The notes under the pieces are model-generated. The model searched no databases, was not told where the DNA came from, and saw nothing but the letters and a program-made list of their open reading frames with translations. From Flavobacteriales bacterium (GTDB lineage Bacteria > Bacteroidota > Bacteroidia > Flavobacteriales_D > UBA2798): a stretch of DNA of 43,422 bases. The stretch is from the NCBI GenBank assembly GCA_046289975.1, contig JBKBUQ010000004.1:1-43422 (forward strand). The letters are read 5' to 3'. Position 1 is the first letter of the stretch, and each line of letters starts with the position of its first letter. The translations under genes were made by a program, and so were the position numbers. This document shows, piece by piece, positions 1 through 40,190 of the stretch.

Positions 1-1029
1 TTCCTGATGCACAACACTACGTCCAAGCAATGGCATCATGTATTGCGGATCAGTACTGCTCATTCGGAAATGCATAACAGAACGTGCAATGTTTGAACGC
101 GCAATTACATGGGTGAGCTGAGGAGTAATAAACTGTTGCGGAATTTCACAGACTCCCAACATTGCCGGATCAAGTGTTTTGAAAAACTCAAGCCGAATCG
201 GCCGGTAATTGCAATGTCCACCATCACTATGGCAAAATCCACAATTAATATCCAAATAAGAACGAACTCGTGTTTCAAGCGGCTGGGTGTCGTCAGTCCA
301 ATCTGCTACACGCGCAATTGTACCCGGAACATTTCCGTTGAGGTATCCGACTTCCTGCCATTTTACCAGCTGATTCTTTACGCCATCTGAATATGTGAAA
401 TCCTTATCGAGGTTCTGAGGTTTTGGCGCAATCGGAATTTTATTTCCATTGGATTTATGACAAGTGAAACACTCGACTTCCGAAGGAATACGAAATGTCA
501 GTGACTGATTAACGCCTTGGTCGTCTATCCATTGAACAGGAACATAACTCCCATTGGTTTCATAAACAGCTTCCGACTGATCCTGATTCCAGATGTAATC
601 TGCAAATTTCCATTCTCCTTCTTTTTTATACAGAAGTCTTGTCTCCAAAATTTTTCGATCGCCGCTTGGAACAACATTATCGTAATAGAAGTTTTTAATG
701 AATACTGTTCCATCCGGAAAATCGAATAGACTATGATCGGAAACATATTGTGCGCTACTATCTTTCATCATCCACACAAATCGTGATTTATGCGCATAAT
801 CGGAAAAGAGTGGTGTAATGGGCTCATAAGGCAACACTCTTTCATTCGGGTTCAAATTTTTTAATGCACCCGTAAAAAATTTATAATCGCTTAACTTAGG
901 ATAAGGAACCTGATTGAGATTAAATACAACTCCGGCATCCTCCTCCGGAATATCATCCGGAATAGGGACATCCCTTCTGCAGGCTGCAATAAATGCAAGC
1001 GCAAAAACAAAAAAGAGTATTCTGATCAT
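1..1029 (-). CDS. Di-haem c-type cytochrome lipoprotein, SO2930/HNE_0200-like family (3' end beyond window edge)
   Basis: Not in the ORF track. Manual translation from ATG at 1029 is open to base 1: MIRILFFVFALAFIAA-C (lipobox), YPKLSDYKFF, YEPITPLFSDYAHKSRF, FPDGTVFIKNFYY, ETRLL, CFTCH (457-471), RSYLDINCGFCH (229-243), MMPLLGRSVVHQE. These motifs are characteristic of the family. Confidence 0.85.
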   Translation of the reverse strand, partial: MIRILFFVFALAFIAACRRDVPIPDDIPEEDAGVVFNLNQVPYPKLSDYKFFTGALKNLNPNERVLPYEPITPLFSDYAHKSRFVWMMKDSSAQYVSDHSLFDFPDGTVFIKNFYYDNVVPSGDRKILETRLLYKKEGEWKFADYIWNQDQSEAVYETNGSYVPVQWIDDQGVNQSLTFRIPSEVECFTCHKSNGNKIPIAPKPQNLDKDFTYSDGVKNQLVKWQEVGYLNGNVPGTIARVADWTDDTQPLETRVRSYLDINCGFCHSDGGHCNYRPIRLEFFKTLDPAMLGVCEIPQQFITPQLTHVIARSNIARSVMHFRMSSTDPQYMMPLLGRSVVHQE

Positions 1030-1148
1030 AGCTACTAAATGTAAAAAAAAGTCCCCTACCCTAAACAACCGATCCCACTTTCAATTCCTGATTTCGGAAG
1101 GAATGCAATTGTAGAAGTGGTAATACCCTGAAATACAAACTACTTTCC

Positions 1149-32750: not shown

Positions 32751-33841
32751 TAGCCTTGCATTTCAACCGGTTTGGTGGGTGCCATGTGCGTGTTTCGCCA
32801 GTTAACCCTCTCTACAAAATTAGCCACAATAAGATCAAAAGCAATAGCAGTAGGCGTTCCTTCCTGTAAAACAGCCGGTCGACCGGCGTCACCACTTTCA
32901 CGAATACTTTGCACCAGAGGTACCTCACCCAAAAAAGCGACATCAAGTTGCCCTGCAAGCTGACGTGCACCACCTTGCCCAAAAATGTAGTATTTGTTCT
33001 CCGGAAATTCTGCAGGAGTGAAATAAGCCATGTTTTCAATCATACCCAAAACCGGCACCTTAATGGAATCCAACTGAAACATCGAAACTCCCTTTTTTGC
33101 ATCTGCCAATGCAATTTGCTGAGGTGTTGAAACAACAACTGCACCGGTAAGCGGAACCAATTGAACCAAACTCAAATGAATATCGCCGGTTCCGGGAGGC
33201 AAATCAATAAGCATATAATCCAGTTCGCCCCAATGCGTATCTCTGAACATTTGTGTTAATGCCTTTGATGCCATTGCGCCTCGCCAAACAATTGCCTGAT
33301 CCAACTCCGCGAAAAAACCTATCGACAACAATTTCACTCCATAACTTTCTACCGGCTTGATCATTGATCGACCATCGACCTCCAAAGCCACAGGTTTTTC
33401 ATGTTGTACATCAAACATGATAGGCATGGAAGGACCATAAATATCGGCATCAATAAGACCAACTTTATACCCTTTTTTTGCCAAGCCTGCAGCCAGATTT
33501 GCAGTGATAGTAGATTTACCTACTCCCCCTTTCCCGGAGGCGATCGCAACAATATTTTTGACGCCTGGTAAAATTGAACGCTGATCAGGAGAACGGTCAG
33601 CACCCAGCGCTACTACATTTACAGAAACCTTATAGGTATTTCCAAGAAAACGTTCAATTGCAAAGCGACATGCTTCTTCCATTCGCTTACGTGAATGCAA
33701 AGCAGGGTTGTTGATCCGGACTGTAAATGAAATTTCAGTGTTGTCAACCTTAATATCGGAAACCAGATCAAGTGCAATCAAATCCTTTTTCAGATCAGGT
33801 TCGATCACATTGGAAAGTGCTTCCTTTATTTTTTCAATCAT
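32750..33841 (-). CDS. mrp: Mrp/ApbC (NBP35) P-loop NTPase with N-terminal DUF59-like domain
   Basis: ASGKGGVGKST, DADIYGPS, WRG, DLPPGTGD, TPQ, ENM; TAATG overlap with the nfu gene. Confidence 0.95.
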   Translation of the reverse strand: MIEKIKEALSNVIEPDLKKDLIALDLVSDIKVDNTEISFTVRINNPALHSRKRMEEACRFAIERFLGNTYKVSVNVVALGADRSPDQRSILPGVKNIVAIASGKGGVGKSTITANLAAGLAKKGYKVGLIDADIYGPSMPIMFDVQHEKPVALEVDGRSMIKPVESYGVKLLSIGFFAELDQAIVWRGAMASKALTQMFRDTHWGELDYMLIDLPPGTGDIHLSLVQLVPLTGAVVVSTPQQIALADAKKGVSMFQLDSIKVPVLGMIENMAYFTPAEFPENKYYIFGQGGARQLAGQLDVAFLGEVPLVQSIRESGDAGRPAVLQEGTPTAIAFDLIVANFVERVNWRNTHMAPTKPVEMQG

Positions 33842-33855
33842 TGATGAAATTTTTA

Positions 33856-33863
33856 CAAAAATA
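33856..33863 (-). promoter_or_regulatory. Bacteroidota -7 promoter element TATTTTTG for mrp-nfu
   Basis: Perfect TAnnTTTG 14 nt upstream of the mrp ATG. Confidence 0.6.
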
Positions 33864-34103
33864 CTGACTTGTTTAATGCGGATGACGTAAAATCACTATT
33901 GTTTTTCCATCGATTTTTGAAACAATTGTCCGGGTGCTTTGTTGAGGTACGATTGATGAAAAGTTAATCCCCCCAAAAAAAAACGCTGTTCTTTTGTGAT
34001 TAATGGTAAATCAAACTTCCTGAACCAATATCCGTTAACTCATCCGACTTGGAAACATTCATTTCCTTAATTATCTTAAGCGCCAATACCTCAATTTGCT
34101 ACT

Positions 34104-36068
34104 GTGAAGAAATCTATCGTTATTCTGCTCATCGCAATCATGGGAGTTTCCTTCATGGCCACCATGAATGCCAAAGTAAATCCACTTCTCAGCAAAGAAG
34201 AGATCTACAAAGTTCATGACTCCCTGTTTCGTACTTACAATCGCGTACCTCTTCCCTTCAATGAGTTTTTTCATCACTCCGTACAATGCGCAGGATGTCA
34301 TGGTTATGATTCTACCGGATTTGCAAGCACGGATGGTGCAGGTAATGATGTAAATCTGGTTGACGACTGGAAAACAAGCATGATGGCATTATCTGCTATC
34401 GATCCGCTTTGGAGAGCAAAAGTTTCGCACGAGGGTCAGGTGAATCCAGGACACGCCACAGCATTGGAAAATACGTGCACAAAATGCCATGCGCCAATGG
34501 GCCACTACACGGCGCGTTTTAAAGGTCTTGCACCTTATACCATTGCAACCCTTGTTACAGATTCACTCGGACTTGATGGTGTTTCATGCAGTGGATGTCA
34601 TATGATAGATTCTACGGTTGGACTAACTTTTTCAGGCGAAATTCCTTTTGATACGATACACAGAGGAACAAACGGCTATCGCACCGAATACGGCCCATTT
34701 CAAAACCCGGTTACTGCCAATATGCAGTTGTATGTTGGTATTACCCCAACTTTTAGCACACATGTCAGCGAAGGAAGAATGTGTTCATCCTGCCACACAC
34801 TTGTTACAAACACAGCCGACCTCAGCGGTAACCTAACAGGAGGAACATTTGTAGAACAGGCAACTTATCACGAATGGTTAAACTCTTCCTATCCTTCAAT
34901 GGATATTACCTGCCAGAAATGCCATATGCCTCAACTGGAAGATCCGATTGTTCTCTACAATGAACTGGGGATGATCGGAAGAGCTCCTTTCAATCTACAT
35001 TTCTTCCAGGGCGCGAATGCGTTTATGGTGGATTTGATTAAACGAAATAAACAAAAACTTGGGCTCAACCATTTGGCAGATATTCACTTTGAGAATACCA
35101 TAGCTGCCATTGAAGATATGATGACCAACAGCACACTGGATCTGGACATCATTGGTACCCCATACACAGCTCAGGACTCATTGTATATCGATTTGTCTCT
35201 GTTGAATAAAGCAGGACATAAATTTCCATCCGGATATCCTTCCAGAAGAGCTTTTGTTCAAATGATTGTGATAAAATCAAATGGCGATACCTTGTTTCGA
35301 TCCGGTTTGATGCAACCCAATGGTGAGATTATGCATAACACAGGTCCTTACCAGAATCATTATGCCATGATCAATCAAGAAACACAAACCCAGATTTACG
35401 AAATGATTATGGGTGATGTAATGGGCGACAAAACTACTGTGCTTGAAAGAGCTGCTGTGCATCTTAAAGACAATCGTATTCCTCCTTTAGGGTTCACAAC
35501 AACTCATTCAGCATACGACACTATTCAAATTATTGGCAACGCAACAAGCGATACCAATTTTAACCGCAATGGTGCCACAGAAGGAACCGGAAAGGACATT
35601 CTCCATTACCATATTCCACTCAACGGCTTTATGGGAGAGGTGAGTATCTACACCAAAGTCTATTACCAAACCGTTAACCCCGGATGGTTGAATGAAATGT
35701 TTGCCTACAACACACCTGCAATTGATTCCTTCAGAAATTGGTACAACCAATCCGACCAAACCCCTTTGTTGGTAGCCCGGGACTCGTTGCTTCAACTTGC
35801 ATTAAACGTTTCTGTACAGGATAACCTAAGCAACCGCATTCAAGTCTACCCCAACCCAAGTTCCGACGGAATTATACGGATTGATAACCAATGGGTTGCC
35901 ATTCAATCGCTGAGCATTTATGACCTGACAGGTAGATTAGTAGGAACTTATTCAGGACAAGAAATCAAAGTGCTGAATAACTTGCAGTTACCGAGTTCCA
36001 GCGGGACTTATATCCTGAAAATCAACACTGAAGAAGGTCAGCTAACGAAAAAGGTCATTCGTTATTAA
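34104..36068 (+). CDS. Penta-haem c-type cytochrome with T9SS type-A C-terminal sorting domain
   Basis: Signal peptide; five CxxCH motifs (CAGCH 34287, CTKCH 34476, CSGCH 34587, CSSCH 34782, CQKCH 34911); AGHKFPSG motif; C-terminal VYPNP...IYDLTGRLV...GTYILKI.....TKKVI. Confidence 0.9.
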   Translation: MKKSIVILLIAIMGVSFMATMNAKVNPLLSKEEIYKVHDSLFRTYNRVPLPFNEFFHHSVQCAGCHGYDSTGFASTDGAGNDVNLVDDWKTSMMALSAIDPLWRAKVSHEGQVNPGHATALENTCTKCHAPMGHYTARFKGLAPYTIATLVTDSLGLDGVSCSGCHMIDSTVGLTFSGEIPFDTIHRGTNGYRTEYGPFQNPVTANMQLYVGITPTFSTHVSEGRMCSSCHTLVTNTADLSGNLTGGTFVEQATYHEWLNSSYPSMDITCQKCHMPQLEDPIVLYNELGMIGRAPFNLHFFQGANAFMVDLIKRNKQKLGLNHLADIHFENTIAAIEDMMTNSTLDLDIIGTPYTAQDSLYIDLSLLNKAGHKFPSGYPSRRAFVQMIVIKSNGDTLFRSGLMQPNGEIMHNTGPYQNHYAMINQETQTQIYEMIMGDVMGDKTTVLERAAVHLKDNRIPPLGFTTTHSAYDTIQIIGNATSDTNFNRNGATEGTGKDILHYHIPLNGFMGEVSIYTKVYYQTVNPGWLNEMFAYNTPAIDSFRNWYNQSDQTPLLVARDSLLQLALNVSVQDNLSNRIQVYPNPSSDGIIRIDNQWVAIQSLSIYDLTGRLVGTYSGQEIKVLNNLQLPSSSGTYILKINTEEGQLTKKVIRY

Positions 36069-36147
36069 AATTCACCTTTTCGTCCAAATCGCTAAAAAAC
36101 TTAACCAATATTGGCTATATTTCAACGTGCACATTTACTAACTGAAA

Positions 36148-39012
36148 ATGAAAAGAACTTTACGAATCACCGCAGGAATCGCGTCGCTTTGTATGTTGGC
36201 TGGAGCCACATCTGCGCAGATTGCCTTCACGAACGGAAGCTCAAGGCTTACGAATAGTGTAAAAAGTACGAACGTACTCACCGTTGCCGACTGGAACAAC
36301 GATGGTTTGGATGATATCATCCGACTTCATGAAGGTTATCAGTTGGTAATTGACGAGCAGCGCCCTGGTCAGAATTTTCTCGAACACAACTTCGGAACGG
36401 TAGGAAGCGGTTCCGGTTGGGCATGGGGTATGGCAGTAGGTGATTTTGATGGTAATGGTTATAAGGATGTTGTAGCGGGAGGATACAGTTCCGGAACACC
36501 TCTTCGTGTTATCATGATGAATTCAACCGGTACTGGAATTACTATTCAAAACCTGACACCCGGTGGATTCTTTGTACAAAACATTACGCTTGGAGACATT
36601 AACAATGACGGTCATCTCGATATTTTTGTTTGTGATGATAATGCTATGTCACACATTTTCATTAATAATGGAACTGGAGCGTTTACACACAACACCACAT
36701 TGATGAATTTCGACGTAACAGCTACAGACGACTCAGGTAACTACGGTTCGGTTTGGACAGATTACGATAACGATGGAGACCTCGATCTTTATATTGCAAA
36801 ATGTCGTCAGTCGGTAAGTAATCCTGCTGATGGTCGACGTATCAACGTACTTTTCCGCAATAACGGTGACGGTACATTTACTGAAGCTGCTGCACCTGCA
36901 AACATCAATGTCGGATGGCAGTCTTGGACCGCAAGTTTTGGTGACATCGATAATGACAATGATTTTGATCTGGTTCTTACCAACCACGATTACGCTGCTC
37001 AGTTATTTACCAATAACGGAAGTGGTGTATTTACAGAAAACACAACATCAGGGATCAATACAACAGGGTTCACACCTATTCAGAGTGGATTTGAAGACTT
37101 CGATAATGATGGTTTTGTTGACTTATTAATCACAGGTAGTTCCGGTGCAAAAATGTTCCGTAACAATGGTGACCTTACGTTTTCGCAAATTACCGTTCCT
37201 TTTCAGGCAGCACCTGCAATTTATACTCCGTCATGGGGAGACTTGAACCATGATGGTTTCATCGATGTATTTGCTTCTTACGGGACCATTTATAACAACC
37301 CATCATCAACCAACAACGACCGCCTTTATCTTGGTACACCAAACGGAAATCACTTCCTCTGTGTGAATCTCACCGGTACAATTTCCAATCCTGATGCTGT
37401 TGGTGCACGTGTTACGATTTACGGACCATTTGGACTTCAGACACGTGAAGTACGCGCCGGTGAATCTTATGGAAACCAGTACTCCGGGCTCATTCATTTT
37501 GGATTAGGAAGCAACACACAAATTGACTCTATTCTTATCGATTGGCCAACAAGCGGAGTTCAGGTAATTGAAAATCCAACTGTAGACAATTTCATCACAG
37601 TTGTTGAAAGCAATTGCGTATCTCCTCTTACAGGAAATATCACATCTTCCAATGGCTCATTCGCTTTCTGTACCGGACAAAGTGTAACTCTTCAAGCTCC
37701 AGCTGGAACTGGTTATACATATCTGTGGAGCAACGGATCAACAGCATCTTCCATCAACGTAAATACTACAGGAGAATACAGTGTAGTTATTACCCAATCA
37801 GGAAATGCCTGCCCTTCTATTTCTCCTTCAGTTAATGTAACTGAAAACCCCGATGAAACGCCTACTATTTCTGCAAACGGACCAACTTCTTTCTGTTACG
37901 GTGAATCCGTTACACTTGTCGGTCCATCCGGAATGAATGGCTACGATTGGTCTAACGGAGAGCAGACTTCATCAATAGTGGTTACTCAGGCAGGAACCTA
38001 CTCACTTGATGTAACAGGGACCTGTGCAACTTTTTCATCCAACAACATTGTAGTGGATGTAATGACTGCTCCATCACCCACAACTTCAGACGTTTCAATC
38101 CCTGTTCCCGGAACTGCAAACCTATCTGCATCGGGGAACAGTGTTGTATGGTACGACGCAGCAGTTGGTGGAAATCAGGTTGGCATTGGAAACAACTGGA
38201 CAACTCCTTTCCTCAATACAACAACATCTTTCTTTGCTGAGGACATGGAAATTTTCGGTGGCGATCAGTACAGTGGAGGTAAAATCTACGGACCCACACC
38301 AGCAGCTTATGGTGGTAACACTACCAATCCAAAAACATTCTTCAACGTTACTGAAGCAGGAACACTGGAAAGCGTGAAAGTTTATACTGATCGCTACGGT
38401 ATTCGTCGCATTCAGGTATTCAACAATGCAGCGCAACTGGTTGCTTTTGTTGATGCCGACATCCAGGCCGACACGGTAGTTGTTCCTTTAAACATCGACC
38501 TTAATCCAGGAACAGGATATTACATCACCACCGACGGAACAACAAATACTAACATTCCAGGTAACGGAGGTAACACAACTCCTCGTTTAATGCGTCACGC
38601 ATCCGGAGTTACCTATCCTTATAATGTTGGACCTTCAATTAGCATAACCGGAAATGATTTGTCGGCCGGTTATTATTATTTCTTCTACGACTGGAGATTT
38701 AAAACAACAGAATTTGATTGTCCCGGTCCACGTGCTCAAGCAGTTGTAACAGTTGTAAATCCAGTTGGCTTAAATGAAGTGACAGAAGGCGGATTCCGCA
38801 TCTTCCCTAACCCAACACGCGACTTACTTAACATCGAAAGCAAAGGAAACTATGCGATTGAAATTATCGATCTAACAGGACGTGCTGTTTACTCCATGAG
38901 CAATGCTAACGGCAACCAGCGCATTGATGTAAATTCACTTATCCCCGGTGTTTACTTTGTTCGCCTAAATGGTGAATCAGGTAAAACCATTCAGAAGATT
39001 GTTATTCAGTAA
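36148..39012 (+). CDS. FG-GAP/VCBS propeller + ASPIC/UnbV (CRTAC1-like) + Ig-like repeats + T9SS type-A CTD protein
   Basis: Seven D(x)DNDG..D Ca-binding repeats; DAVGARV, HFGLG, IDWP (ASPIC/UnbV); two Y.WSNG....SI.V...G.YS repeats; WYDAAVGG Ig domain; IFPNP...DLTGR...GVYFVR...KIV CTD. Confidence 0.9.
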   Translation: MKRTLRITAGIASLCMLAGATSAQIAFTNGSSRLTNSVKSTNVLTVADWNNDGLDDIIRLHEGYQLVIDEQRPGQNFLEHNFGTVGSGSGWAWGMAVGDFDGNGYKDVVAGGYSSGTPLRVIMMNSTGTGITIQNLTPGGFFVQNITLGDINNDGHLDIFVCDDNAMSHIFINNGTGAFTHNTTLMNFDVTATDDSGNYGSVWTDYDNDGDLDLYIAKCRQSVSNPADGRRINVLFRNNGDGTFTEAAAPANINVGWQSWTASFGDIDNDNDFDLVLTNHDYAAQLFTNNGSGVFTENTTSGINTTGFTPIQSGFEDFDNDGFVDLLITGSSGAKMFRNNGDLTFSQITVPFQAAPAIYTPSWGDLNHDGFIDVFASYGTIYNNPSSTNNDRLYLGTPNGNHFLCVNLTGTISNPDAVGARVTIYGPFGLQTREVRAGESYGNQYSGLIHFGLGSNTQIDSILIDWPTSGVQVIENPTVDNFITVVESNCVSPLTGNITSSNGSFAFCTGQSVTLQAPAGTGYTYLWSNGSTASSINVNTTGEYSVVITQSGNACPSISPSVNVTENPDETPTISANGPTSFCYGESVTLVGPSGMNGYDWSNGEQTSSIVVTQAGTYSLDVTGTCATFSSNNIVVDVMTAPSPTTSDVSIPVPGTANLSASGNSVVWYDAAVGGNQVGIGNNWTTPFLNTTTSFFAEDMEIFGGDQYSGGKIYGPTPAAYGGNTTNPKTFFNVTEAGTLESVKVYTDRYGIRRIQVFNNAAQLVAFVDADIQADTVVVPLNIDLNPGTGYYITTDGTTNTNIPGNGGNTTPRLMRHASGVTYPYNVGPSISITGNDLSAGYYYFFYDWRFKTTEFDCPGPRAQAVVTVVNPVGLNEVTEGGFRIFPNPTRDLLNIESKGNYAIEIIDLTGRAVYSMSNANGNQRIDVNSLIPGVYFVRLNGESGKTIQKIVIQ

Positions 39013-39027
39013 TAAATTTGCACAACG

Positions 39028-39061
39028 AAAAAAATCCCGGCTTTAAAGTCGGGATTTTTTT
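39028..39061. terminator. Bidirectional intrinsic terminator
   Basis: A7-TCCCGGCTT-TA-AAGTCGGGA-T7 between convergent genes. Confidence 0.88.
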
Positions 39062-39064
39062 ATG

Positions 39065-39427
39065 CTATTTAAATCCAAGCTCTTTAACAGGATCCCAAAA
39101 AAGTTTATCAAAATCAATTACTGTATCATCTACAATAAGAATACCTTCTGCCTCTAGCAATTGTTGCATTTCAACAGGAGAAGAAAAGTGCATTTTTCCG
39201 GTTAACTCACCATTGCGATTAACTACCCGATGGGCAGGCACACCCTTTTGCACGTGTGAAGCATTCATTGCCCATCCCACCATACGTGATGATCGAGCCG
39301 ATCCAAGGTAGTTGGCTATTGCTCCATAACTGGTTACACGACCATAAGGCACAAGTCGTACCACCTGGTAAACCAGATCAAAAAAATCCTTGTTCTTTTC
39401 GCTTAACTTAACGGGTTTTGTACTCAA
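39065..39427 (-). CDS. Alkyltransferase-like (ATL/YbaZ, MGMT family) protein
   Basis: VPYGRVTSYG.IA, RMVG.AM, PAHRVVN (Ala in place of the catalytic Cys of PCHR), LLEAEG. Start is probably TTG 39427. Confidence 0.88.
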   Translation of the reverse strand: MSTKPVKLSEKNKDFFDLVYQVVRLVPYGRVTSYGAIANYLGSARSSRMVGWAMNASHVQKGVPAHRVVNRNGELTGKMHFSSPVEMQQLLEAEGILIVDDTVIDFDKLFWDPVKELGFK

Positions 39428-40190
39428 TGGTTTTATAGTATTTTTCAAGCTCGGCCAAAGATGGATCGAGTTCAATTCGCAATTCAGGATTCATCTTAAA
39501 ATCAGCTGGCAACTCAAATTTCAGATACTTGATCTTTTTTCCTTTTGCAAGCCACATTTGTTCATAATGCGTCCGGATATCAAGAATATCGCGGGTAGAT
39601 ATATCAAACGTTTCAAATTGATCGCCATAAAGATCTCCGGTGTCTACCAAACATTTCAAATTGTATTTGTTGATCACTTCACGTGTAAAAACATACAATA
39701 AATCACTATCGGTTTTTACATGAATCAATCCATTCGGCTTTAAAAAAGAACAATAATTCTCGAGAAAATACGGGGAGCTGAGTCGTTTATTTTCTTTGCC
39801 TTCACGTGGTTGTGGATCAGAAAAAGTCAACCAGATCTCGTCCACCTCATCTTTACTAAAAAACGCTTTTATAAAATCAATCCGAGTACGAAGAAAGGCT
39901 GCATTTTTTATGGACTCGTCCACAGCAGTTTTTGCTCCTCTCCAAATCCGGGCGCCTTTTACATCTACTCCAATAAAATTCCGTTCCGGAAACCGCTTTG
40001 CCAATCCTACCGTATACTCACCCTTACCGCAACCCAACTCGAGGGTAATGGGATGCTCATTGTTAAAAATTTCCTTTTTCCAATTGCCTTTGATTGGATG
40101 ATCCGTTTCCAATAACTCTTTTCCCGACTGCTGAATCACATTCGGAAAACCTTCCATTTCAGCCCATCGCTGCAGCTTGTTCTTGCCCAT
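39408..40190 (-). CDS. trmB: tRNA (guanine46-N7)-methyltransferase
   Basis: LELGCGKGEY, GVDVKGARIW, WLTFSDPQ, KRL, KTDS, THYE. Confidence 0.96.
   Translation of the reverse strand: MGKNKLQRWAEMEGFPNVIQQSGKELLETDHPIKGNWKKEIFNNEHPITLELGCGKGEYTVGLAKRFPERNFIGVDVKGARIWRGAKTAVDESIKNAAFLRTRIDFIKAFFSKDEVDEIWLTFSDPQPREGKENKRLSSPYFLENYCSFLKPNGLIHVKTDSDLLYVFTREVINKYNLKCLVDTGDLYGDQFETFDISTRDILDIRTHYEQMWLAKGKKIKYLKFELPADFKMNPELRIELDPSLAELEKYYKTIEYKTR

Follow-up and report, generated by a model that had tools for sequence, protein, structure and literature searches.

A pentahaem cytochrome c of the PHC family with a type IX secretion tail in a Flavobacteriales bacterium: a candidate exported electron-transfer protein

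A contig of 43,422 nucleotides (nt) from a Flavobacteriales bacterium (JBKBUQ010000004.1 of the assembly GCA_046289975.1; this whole stretch is hereafter the window) carries a gene for a pentahaem c-type cytochrome of 654 amino acids (aa), in which a Sec-type leader, an N-terminal haem domain, an enlarged beta-sandwich of the immunoglobulin-like (Ig-like) kind and a type-A C-terminal sorting domain (CTD) of the type IX secretion system (T9SS) follow one another (Table 1). The GC content of the gene is 0.426, against 0.39-0.44 across the rest of the window, and 79 nt downstream starts a second gene, referred to here as the partner, for a beta-propeller protein that also ends in a type-A CTD. 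The original prediction, made from the letters of the DNA, had described in the cytochrome a Sec signal peptide, five CxxCH motifs in the N-terminal ~275 aa, extra His and Met residues as possible haem ligands, a beta-rich middle with a GHKFPSG motif and a canonical type-A CTD, and all of these elements were recovered in our analysis, the signal peptide as a putative one. In particular, the leader (MKKSIVILLIAIMGVSFMATMNA) is typical by eye: its n-region is basic, its core is hydrophobic and it lacks a lipobox Cys; it is kept in the homologues, which begin alike in the alignment, and the structural model shows a helix at its residues 2-21. The five CxxCH motifs all fall within the first 275 residues, and GHKFPSG (residues 371-377) lies inside the well-modelled beta-sandwich.

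The haem-binding motifs are conserved throughout the family. None of the five CxxCH varies, either in the aligned homologues (30/30) or in diverse representatives of the family (111/111, from an alignment of proteins 500-760 aa long that have five or more CxxCH), and five CxxCH are present in 82 of the 83 family proteins encoded at the related loci. In the genome (334 contigs, 3.27 Mb, 95.4% complete) the stop-to-stop frames that are 80 aa or longer number 8690 and only 3 of them reach three or more CxxCH, so the occurrence of five in one protein is not a matter of chance; the other two frames are a paralogue and an ActA/QrcA-like hexahaem protein of a respiratory complex. The protein also matches the Pfam model Cytochrome_C7 at 30 bits (cut-off 24.8). 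Conservation extends to residues that could serve as distal ligands: H220, H299, H372 and H419 are invariant in the query and 29 homologues, as is the loop A-G-H-K-F-P-[ST]-G-Y-P-[SA]-R-R, and among the 111 diverse members H372 and H419 are found in 111, H299 in 110, M207 in 109, M94 in 104 and H220 in 96. The arrangement favoured on this pattern is one in which all haems would be six-coordinate, about four with His/His and one with His/Met ligation.

An AlphaFold2 model of the cytochrome was built from the 30-row alignment (mean predicted local distance difference test score, pLDDT, 68.5). The beta-sandwich and the CTD are well modelled and the haem domain is poor, as expected for a domain predicted without its haems. 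The top rank in Foldseek was the pentahaem cytochrome c552 of Thermochromatium tepidum (5ZE8, E 5.1e-8); VIA-align, run on 48,161 chains, placed 5ZE8_A at Z 15.5 over model residues 52..564 (root-mean-square deviation, rmsd, 3.3; 275 aligned residues, 19% identity), the next unrelated rows over this region having Z of 8.7 or less. The sequence profile of the family reaches 5ze8 at E 0.0077 and the selenoenzyme MccSep of Geobacter sulfurreducens (9wt8) at E 0.033. In these alignments N-K-A-G-H-K-F-P-S-G-Y-P-S-R of the query corresponds to P-H-A-M-P-T-G-A-P-F-R in c552 and to A-G-H-S-I-P-D-G-U-P in MccSep, and within the loop H-x-x-P-x-G-x-P both H372 and P375 are conserved in 111/111 members.

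ExtKL, Gsu2801, c552 and proteins of cable bacteria have been grouped as the 'PHC' family (sPHC/lPHC) in a report whose accessible part states the function of c552 as unknown (PMC11976967). Judged from the model, the cytochrome is a Bacteroidota branch of the PHC family in which the beta domain is enlarged and a T9SS tail is present, and it is distantly related to ExtKL/MccSep; this family assignment, the conserved CRTAC1-like partner and the spread of the architecture had all been missed by the original prediction. Like the query, c552 has five CxxCH haems in its N-terminal part, followed by an Ig-like beta-sandwich, and the loop H-x-x-P-[ST]-G-x-P-x-R. It differs in that its solved chain has 385-435 residues, its deposited sequence is without a T9SS tail, its beta domain is much smaller than that of the query (~265 residues) and Ala occupies the position of Tyr378. 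The cable-bacteria PHC proteins similarly combine a pentahaem with an Ig-like domain, in small and large versions and in varied fusions, but they are periplasmic and include truncated-haemoglobin fusions, and a Bacteroidota branch or a T9SS tail is not mentioned in the accessible part of the report (PMC11976967).

The assignment of the tail is based on both sequence and fold. It scores 41.9 bits with PF18962 and 52.9 bits with TIGR04183, above the curated cut-offs of 27 and 23, respectively, and superposes on the NucA CTD from the SprA translocon (8glk_D; Z 11.5, rmsd 1.4, 73 residues). TIGR04183 matches 30/30 aligned homologues, and a hidden Markov model (HMM) of the CTD built in this analysis matches 82/82 family proteins from 81 loci. 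The tail thus resembles those of characterised type-A cargo, by TIGR04183 sequence (the CTDs of NucA, RemA and FspA, and gingipain RgpB) and by fold (the SprA-complex CTDs 8glk_D, 8gl8_D, 8gl6_D and 8glj_D, Z 9.2-11.5). Known T9SS cargo comprises hydrolases, adhesins and motility proteins; the query differs from it in kind, as a predicted covalently haem-loaded redox protein, a type of cargo of which no description was found in the literature searched.

A CTD match to an HMM, conservation of the motifs in homologues, a T9SS and genes for cytochrome c maturation had been set as checks in the original prediction and, besides the CTD match and the conservation given above, both sets of genes were found. 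All of the T9SS parts searched for are present in the genome: SprA (2448 bits), GldM (204.9 bits), and PorU (1285 bits) and PorV (332 bits), which adjoin each other on one contig (C19); the CTD model has 104 matches. For haem attachment, two matches to PF01578 (Cytochrom_C_asm) lie above the cut-off, namely an 832-aa frame that resembles CcmF/NrfE and is truncated where its contig ends, and a 348-aa frame that resembles CcmC.

The family is large yet patchy. A word-seeded search, in which 8000 candidates were scored, returned at least 3124 homologues at E <=0.001; the best 120 of these, 615-680 aa long and 46-97% identical to the query, come from metagenome-assembled genomes (MAGs) of Flavobacteriales, Bacteroidia and Chitinophagales, and, where the listed homologues bear names, these go no further than 'hypothetical protein' and 'T9SS type A sorting domain-containing protein'. 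Among 1.84 billion cluster representatives, the clusters matched by HMMER number 7167 at E <=0.001, falling to 2479 when the limit is 1e-10 and to 949 when it is 1e-30. In contigs sampled at one genome per species, the family was confirmed in at least 569 species genomes, from at least 598 pattern stretches, while an even sample of the phylum contains a match at E <=1e-20 in 25 of 401 genomes and 20 of 180 genera.

All open reading frames with a length of 90 aa or more, taken from the window and 80 related loci, were clustered, and the partner emerged as the only conserved neighbour: it is present at 46 of 81 loci, whereas the next cluster reaches 9. In 37 loci it follows the cytochrome gene directly and on the same strand, with gaps mostly of 13-125 nt; it is downstream and convergent in 7 and upstream in 2, and loci where it adjoins the gene in another orientation number 8. 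Of the 35 loci lacking it, six extend for less than 600 nt on the downstream side, and overall its share can be put at 46 of 75. In a FastTree phylogeny built from 83 proteins of the family (midpoint-rooted, SH-like support), two clades separate with 99% support, and in the window's clade the partner accompanies the cytochrome in 45 of 61 rows, or in 45 of the 56 (80%) with at least 2 kb downstream. One row, L014, which holds the full Bacteroidota-type pair of PHC-CTD and FG-GAP/ASPIC-CTD genes, is titled uncultured Bifidobacteriaceae bacterium (Actinomycetota); it nests among Bacteroidota rows and is probably a mislabelled or mis-binned MAG.

The architecture of the partner is equally constant: FG-GAP_3, UnbV_ASPIC and Por_Secre_tail were matched in 26/26 of the orthologues that were chosen, out of the 46, as complete. 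In the model of the partner (pLDDT 84.7), the best Foldseek match is murine CRTAC1 (9etn, E 1.2e-20, TMt 0.67), and further matches are to pieces of the Ig-like stalk of the Aureispira grappling hook, integrin alpha chains and fungal aldos-2-ulose dehydratase. The scan reported no terminator-like site in the 79 nt that separate the cytochrome gene from the partner; the hairpin of 15 pairs and a T run after the partner is only a hint, given that the scan finds 4 sites in all against a shuffle mean of 4.5. A complex prediction with residues 48-570 of the cytochrome and 24-495 of the partner gave an ipSAE of 0.00 in both runs, with no folded controls for comparison, and is neutral on binding. In one genome (G097), a Sortilin/Vps10 propeller of 1013 aa with a T9SS CTD stands directly upstream of the PHC-CTD gene, instead of the FG-GAP/ASPIC partner.

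Table 1. Features of the cytochrome locus and of related or neighbouring genes. Positions are those of the window unless a contig (C) or locus (L) is named.
Feature	Position	Strand	Basis or remark
Pentahaem c-type cytochrome gene with T9SS tail, 654 aa	34104..36068	+	open frame, GTG start
Putative Sec-type signal peptide, residues ~1-24, without lipobox	34104..34175	+	read from sequence
Pentahaem domain, residues ~50-300	34251..35003	+	invariant CxxCH, Cytochrome_C7, alignment to 5ZE8
CxxCH 1, CAGCH, residues 62-66	34287-34301	+	
CxxCH 2, CTKCH, residues 125-129	34476-34490	+	
CxxCH 3, CSGCH, residues 162-166	34587-34601	+	
CxxCH 4, CSSCH, residues 227-231	34782-34796	+	
CxxCH 5, CQKCH, residues 270-274	34911-34925	+	
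Enlarged Ig-like beta-sandwich domain, residues ~305-570	35016..35813	+	pLDDT mostly 75-94; within 5ZE8 match
Signature loop N-K-A-G-H-K-F-P-S-G-Y-P-S-R-R, residues 368-382	35205..35249	+	HMMER alignments to 9wt8, 5ze8
Type-A T9SS C-terminal sorting domain, residues 581-652	35844..36059	+	PF18962, TIGR04183, genome scan, fold
Partner gene, 954 aa, CRTAC1-like FG-GAP propeller + UnbV/ASPIC + CHU_C-type Ig domains + type-A CTD	36148..39012	+	Pfam
Partner ASPIC domain	37396-37596	+	Pfam
Partner CTD	38800-39006	+	Pfam
Terminator-like hairpin, 15 pairs + T run, after partner	39028..39061	+	terminator scan
Paralogue of the cytochrome, 642 aa	C277:5556-7484 = L001:5556-7484	-	
Sortilin/Vps10 propeller with T9SS CTD, 1013 aa	L090:4810-7851	+	
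Plastocyanin/azurin-type copper protein with T9SS CTD, 209 aa	L067:9825-10454	-	five further loci (cluster c8)
Monohaem genes of ~400 aa before tail-less PHC genes	L085:6552-7847, L086:6646-7848, L087:6683-7879, L088:9714-10907 (-), L089:6634-7830		
Hexahaem frame, 448 aa, six CxxCH	C110:20139-21482 = L084:6140-7483	+	
Second UnbV/ASPIC + T9SS CTD gene, 295-aa frame	C223:414-881	+	short contig
Histidine kinase with Reg_prop propeller + Y_Y_Y, 1002 aa	26139-29147	-	
PD40-repeat amidohydrolase, 1093 aa	29144-32425	-	4-nt overlap with kinase gene
Open-ended frame at window start, two CxxCH	1-1068	-	

The CTD above the cut-offs, the T9SS and Ccm-like genes in the genome and the conserved CxxCH make the export of a holo-cytochrome through the T9SS the best reading of this locus. 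To this extent the original prediction stands, whereas its functional part, which proposed an exchange of electrons with metals or humics, or else an oxidative attack, goes beyond the evidence. Our overall interpretation, to which we give a probability of about 0.6, is that this PHC cytochrome is exported in its holo form via the T9SS and acts outside the cell as a six-coordinate electron-transfer module, probably together with the propeller partner. The identity of the protein and its probable export are well supported, and a role as an extracellular electron carrier is the best-supported candidate mechanism.

According to this scheme, the protein, whose Ig-like beta-sandwich would cap the N-terminal five-haem domain and insert a conserved His-bearing loop, would be synthesized with its Sec leader and its haems would be attached in the periplasm by a Ccm-type (CcmC/CcmF-like) system. 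The type-A CTD would then be recognised, the folded protein would pass through the SprA translocon, and PorU/PorV would either release the cytochrome or fix it to the cell surface. Once exported, it would most likely serve as an electron-transfer module and not as a substrate-binding enzyme, probably working with the co-encoded and co-exported CRTAC1-like propeller protein and exchanging electrons, in one direction or the other, with diffusible or co-secreted redox partners rather than with a conduit across the outer membrane.

A number of observations weigh against this interpretation. At the level of the protein, pLDDT falls below 50 at residues 22-54, 62-87, 162-232 and 253-303, and with the haem domain poorly modelled the ligands are assigned from conservation; H220 is replaced by Gln in 11/111 members, which leaves room for an open or labile coordination, and the invariance of E251 and Q252 in 111/111 members is left unexplained. 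As for maturation, the Ccm-like proteins score below the curated NCBIfam cut-offs (146.7 vs 569 and 69.4 vs 186), and the ResB model PF05140 has no match in the genome; maturation of the ResB/CcsB type was rejected as an alternative on this account, Ccm-like proteins being present instead. Nor is an MtrAB-like porin-cytochrome conduit visible, as judged by CxxCH frames, in the genome, whose 95.4% completeness leaves the absence short of proof, and no match to LPMO_10 (PF03067) was found in it, so that a lytic polysaccharide monooxygenase (LPMO) was rejected as a partner.

The association with the propeller protein is also limited. In the second clade of the family the partner occurs in 1 of 22 rows. 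Furthermore, ASPIC-domain proteins are found in 183 of 401 genomes of the phylum, in 19/24 PHC-positive genomes and in 163/376 of the others; given that the domain is common in the phylum and that related genomes are not independent, the phyletic linkage is only modest. Finally, 0 contigs from three sludge metatranscriptome runs of one study (word shares 0.07-0.12) fell on positions 33000-39500. As a separate observation, the genome contains a second gene for an UnbV/ASPIC protein with a T9SS CTD, on a short contig, unlinked to either of its cytochrome genes.

The second clade includes the paralogue of the same genome, which is 46% identical to the query, retains five CxxCH and has a weaker CTD (Pfam score 21 bits); the genes next to it encode a CitMHS transporter, an HD-domain protein and CarboxypepD_reg/Plug proteins. 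The neighbours that recur in this clade, including a cupredoxin and an M28 peptidase that both carry a CTD, are confined to one Flavobacteriales lineage. A plastocyanin/azurin-type copper protein with a T9SS CTD (cluster c8) adjoins clade-A PHC genes at six loci and would be a second secreted redox protein, though in one Flavobacteriales lineage only. The hexahaem frame, located on the same contig as sprA, scores 84.5 bits with the QrcA model, below its cut-off of 180, and is read as belonging to an alternative complex III, in which it would be the ActA-like subunit.

Among the other explanations, a secreted or surface haem protein with no respiratory role, such as a peroxidase-like detoxifier, a store of haem or iron, or a redox 'capacitor' under fluctuating oxygen, is unlikely, although it has some footing. 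The carriers of the family look, from the titles of their records, like heterotrophs of lake, sludge and soil, a conduit was not seen in the genome, the invariant E251 and Q252 are unaccounted for, and capacitor-like roles of Bacteroidota multihaem proteins predicted to be secreted are a matter of speculation in the accessible part of a published survey (PMC11495043). However, peroxidase and haemophore families had no match in the Pfam and NCBIfam scans, and the propeller pairing and the fusions of relatives to dehydrogenase and carbohydrate-binding domains, described below, fit an electron relay better.

We consider it quite improbable that the protein is instead a secreted catalytic multihaem enzyme, similar to MccSep/ExtKL, at whose haem 2 polysulfide, selenite or some related oxyanion would be reduced by means of a residue in the Ig loop. 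MccSep is described as a homotetrameric polysulfide reductase that is periplasmic and combines a five-haem cap with an Ig-like stem, in which four haems have His/His ligation, haem 2 is ligated by His/Cys239, and selenocysteine 325 (Sec325) of a stem loop reaches the distal pocket of haem 2 (10.1101/2025.11.18.688581, as far as accessible). The query has the same two-domain plan of pentahaem cap and Ig-like stem, and its loop N-x-x-G-H-x-x-P-x-G-X-P can be aligned to the active-site loop of MccSep; moreover, at E <=1e-3 the ExtKL equivalog NF040886 finds 22 of the 30 members tried, with 6.5e-13 as the best value. A special haem pocket would be allowed by the invariance of E251/Q252 and by the H220Q variants, which keep this enzymatic explanation alive at low odds.

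The catalytic residues of MccSep have no counterparts in the family. The U325 position holds neither Sec nor Cys in the query but Tyr378, and this position reads Y58/F33/I16/H3 in the 111 members; the loop pattern is matched by 122 of 150 representatives, where the same position reads Y68/F35/I17/H2. Such variation is that of a packing residue and not of a catalytic one, and a catalytic Tyr378 as a replacement of Sec325 was consequently rejected. In neither the 30-row nor the 111-row alignment is any Cys conserved outside the CxxCH motifs, so that the haem-ligating Cys239 is without counterpart, T248 occupying its position in a low-confidence alignment; the query itself scores 15.4 bits with NF040886, against a cut-off of 250. 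MccSep is, in addition, periplasmic, as are 97% of its homologues by prediction in the part of the report that could be consulted (10.1101/2025.11.18.688581), whereas the query is T9SS-tagged. The lack of Sec/Cys catalytic residues, together with conserved His/Met that could serve all five haems as ligands, argues for an exported electron-transfer module rather than for an MccSep-type enzyme.

An ordinary soluble periplasmic cytochrome, with the CTD as a vestige or an Ig-like spacer, is the least probable alternative and is very hard to reconcile with a tail that scores above the cut-off in 30/30 and 82/82 members and has the fold of translocon-bound CTDs, with a partner whose CTD is kept in every orthologue inspected and with a T9SS found in all the parts searched for, even though MccSep, the closest studied relative, is not exported and many relatives of 530-620 aa, matching profile positions ~50-555 only, are tail-less. 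T. tepidum c552, too, is presumably a soluble protein that is not exported.

Distant relatives of the cytochrome provide a further view of the contexts in which PHC domains are found. In other phyla the module stands in redox architectures that look extracellular, and fusions among the cluster representatives (P0188, P0205, P0253 and P0209) include a 941-aa Phycisphaerae protein, named 'PQQ-dependent sugar dehydrogenase' (PQQ, pyrroloquinoline quinone), that joins GSDH and PHC; GSDH + F5/8-type-C + PHC in 1142 aa; and DUF642 + PHC + TSP3 + dockerin in 820 aa. One relative of 1919 aa is named subtilisin-like proprotein convertase/cytochrome c553. The occurrence of PHC domains beside or fused to beta-propellers, carbohydrate-binding modules and surface anchors fits an electron relay at or beyond the outer membrane and, by analogy, suggests that co-secreted partners, and not the respiratory chain, may supply the electrons.

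In five of five genomes of the phylum, a tail-less PHC gene (~555 aa) is directly preceded by a ~400-aa gene encoding a monohaem cytochrome c domain, the remainder of which matches Phenol_MetA_deg, a family that we take to be outer-membrane barrels, in one of the five. In the Atlas, look-alike clusters of this gene contain Phenol_MetA_deg in 12-20% of their members and are commonest in Acidobacteriota, and the monohaem gene and the tail-less PHC may form a porin-cytochrome-like pair.

The comparison with known extracellular cytochromes indicates how different the proposed route would be. MtrC and OmcA of Shewanella are, like the query by prediction, multihaem c-type cytochromes placed outside the outer membrane, and there is a weak local likeness to the MtrC/MtrF domain II/IV model PF22113 (27.5 bits vs a cut-off of 30), TIGR03507 giving 20 bits against a cut-off of 209.3. 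In contrast, they carry ten haems, are lipoproteins and depend on the type II secretion system and a porin-cytochrome conduit, whereas the query has five haems, is not a lipoprotein and has the T9SS tail. We tentatively propose, as a possibility well short of even odds, that in environmental Bacteroidota the fully haem-loaded, T9SS-exported pentahaem protein and the CRTAC1-like propeller form a free-standing extracellular redox pair that would work without a conduit. The cytochrome would pass electrons between a propeller or dehydrogenase module, secreted or bound to the substrate, and acceptors or oxidative enzymes outside the cell, such as Fe(III), humics or polymer-attacking enzymes.

An analogy, of function only, can be drawn with fungi, whose cellobiose dehydrogenase and PQQ pyranose dehydrogenase have cytochrome domains with b-type single-haem folds. 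These systems combine a secreted cytochrome module, a dehydrogenase and a carbohydrate-binding module, as is seen in the PHC relatives; they differ in having an unrelated fold, and no such fusion occurs in the present genome, which contains one GSDH gene (on contig C136).

The remaining genes of the window were rejected as functional context, being unrelated and not conserved beside the family. They encode an ApbC/Mrp Fe-S carrier, a PD40-amidohydrolase and a Reg_prop/Y_Y_Y histidine kinase, both unrelated to the cytochrome, a methyltransferase, an Ogt-like protein and a glycosyltransferase; a frame with two CxxCH is cut by the start of the window. Bacteroidota promoters differ from the sigma-70 consensus, and a scan for sigma-70 promoters, which gave 12 sites against 12.8 in shuffles, was set aside.

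Both the cytochrome family and the secretion signal are known, and it is their combination that is not described in the literature searched. In line with the original prediction of a little-described route, the open-access literature searched yielded no paper in which type IX secretion is linked with cytochromes of the multihaem or c-type kind, and among the papers listed by a broader search none addresses the subject, as judged by its title or the opening of its abstract. A survey of sludge MAGs predicts secreted Bacteroidota multihaem cytochromes and speculates on extracellular electron transfer, with no mention of T9SS in its accessible part (PMC11495043).

If the proposed export is true, covalently cofactor-loaded redox proteins would be a new class of T9SS cargo, and Bacteroidota, major degraders of polymers in lakes, soil and sludge, would perform extracellular redox chemistry by a route unlike that of Shewanella or Geobacter. 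With a family so large, whose listed members bear generic names only, one experiment could assign a role to thousands of genes. The pairing with the propeller protein gives a bacterial handle on the CRTAC1-type domain family, the function of which is, to our knowledge, poorly understood. The fusions with PQQ dehydrogenase, carbohydrate-binding and dockerin domains suggest, moreover, a link to the extracellular oxidation of sugars and polymers and, should the cytochrome and the propeller protein prove to be a redox pair, they would represent a bacterial counterpart of the fungal dehydrogenase-cytochrome systems.

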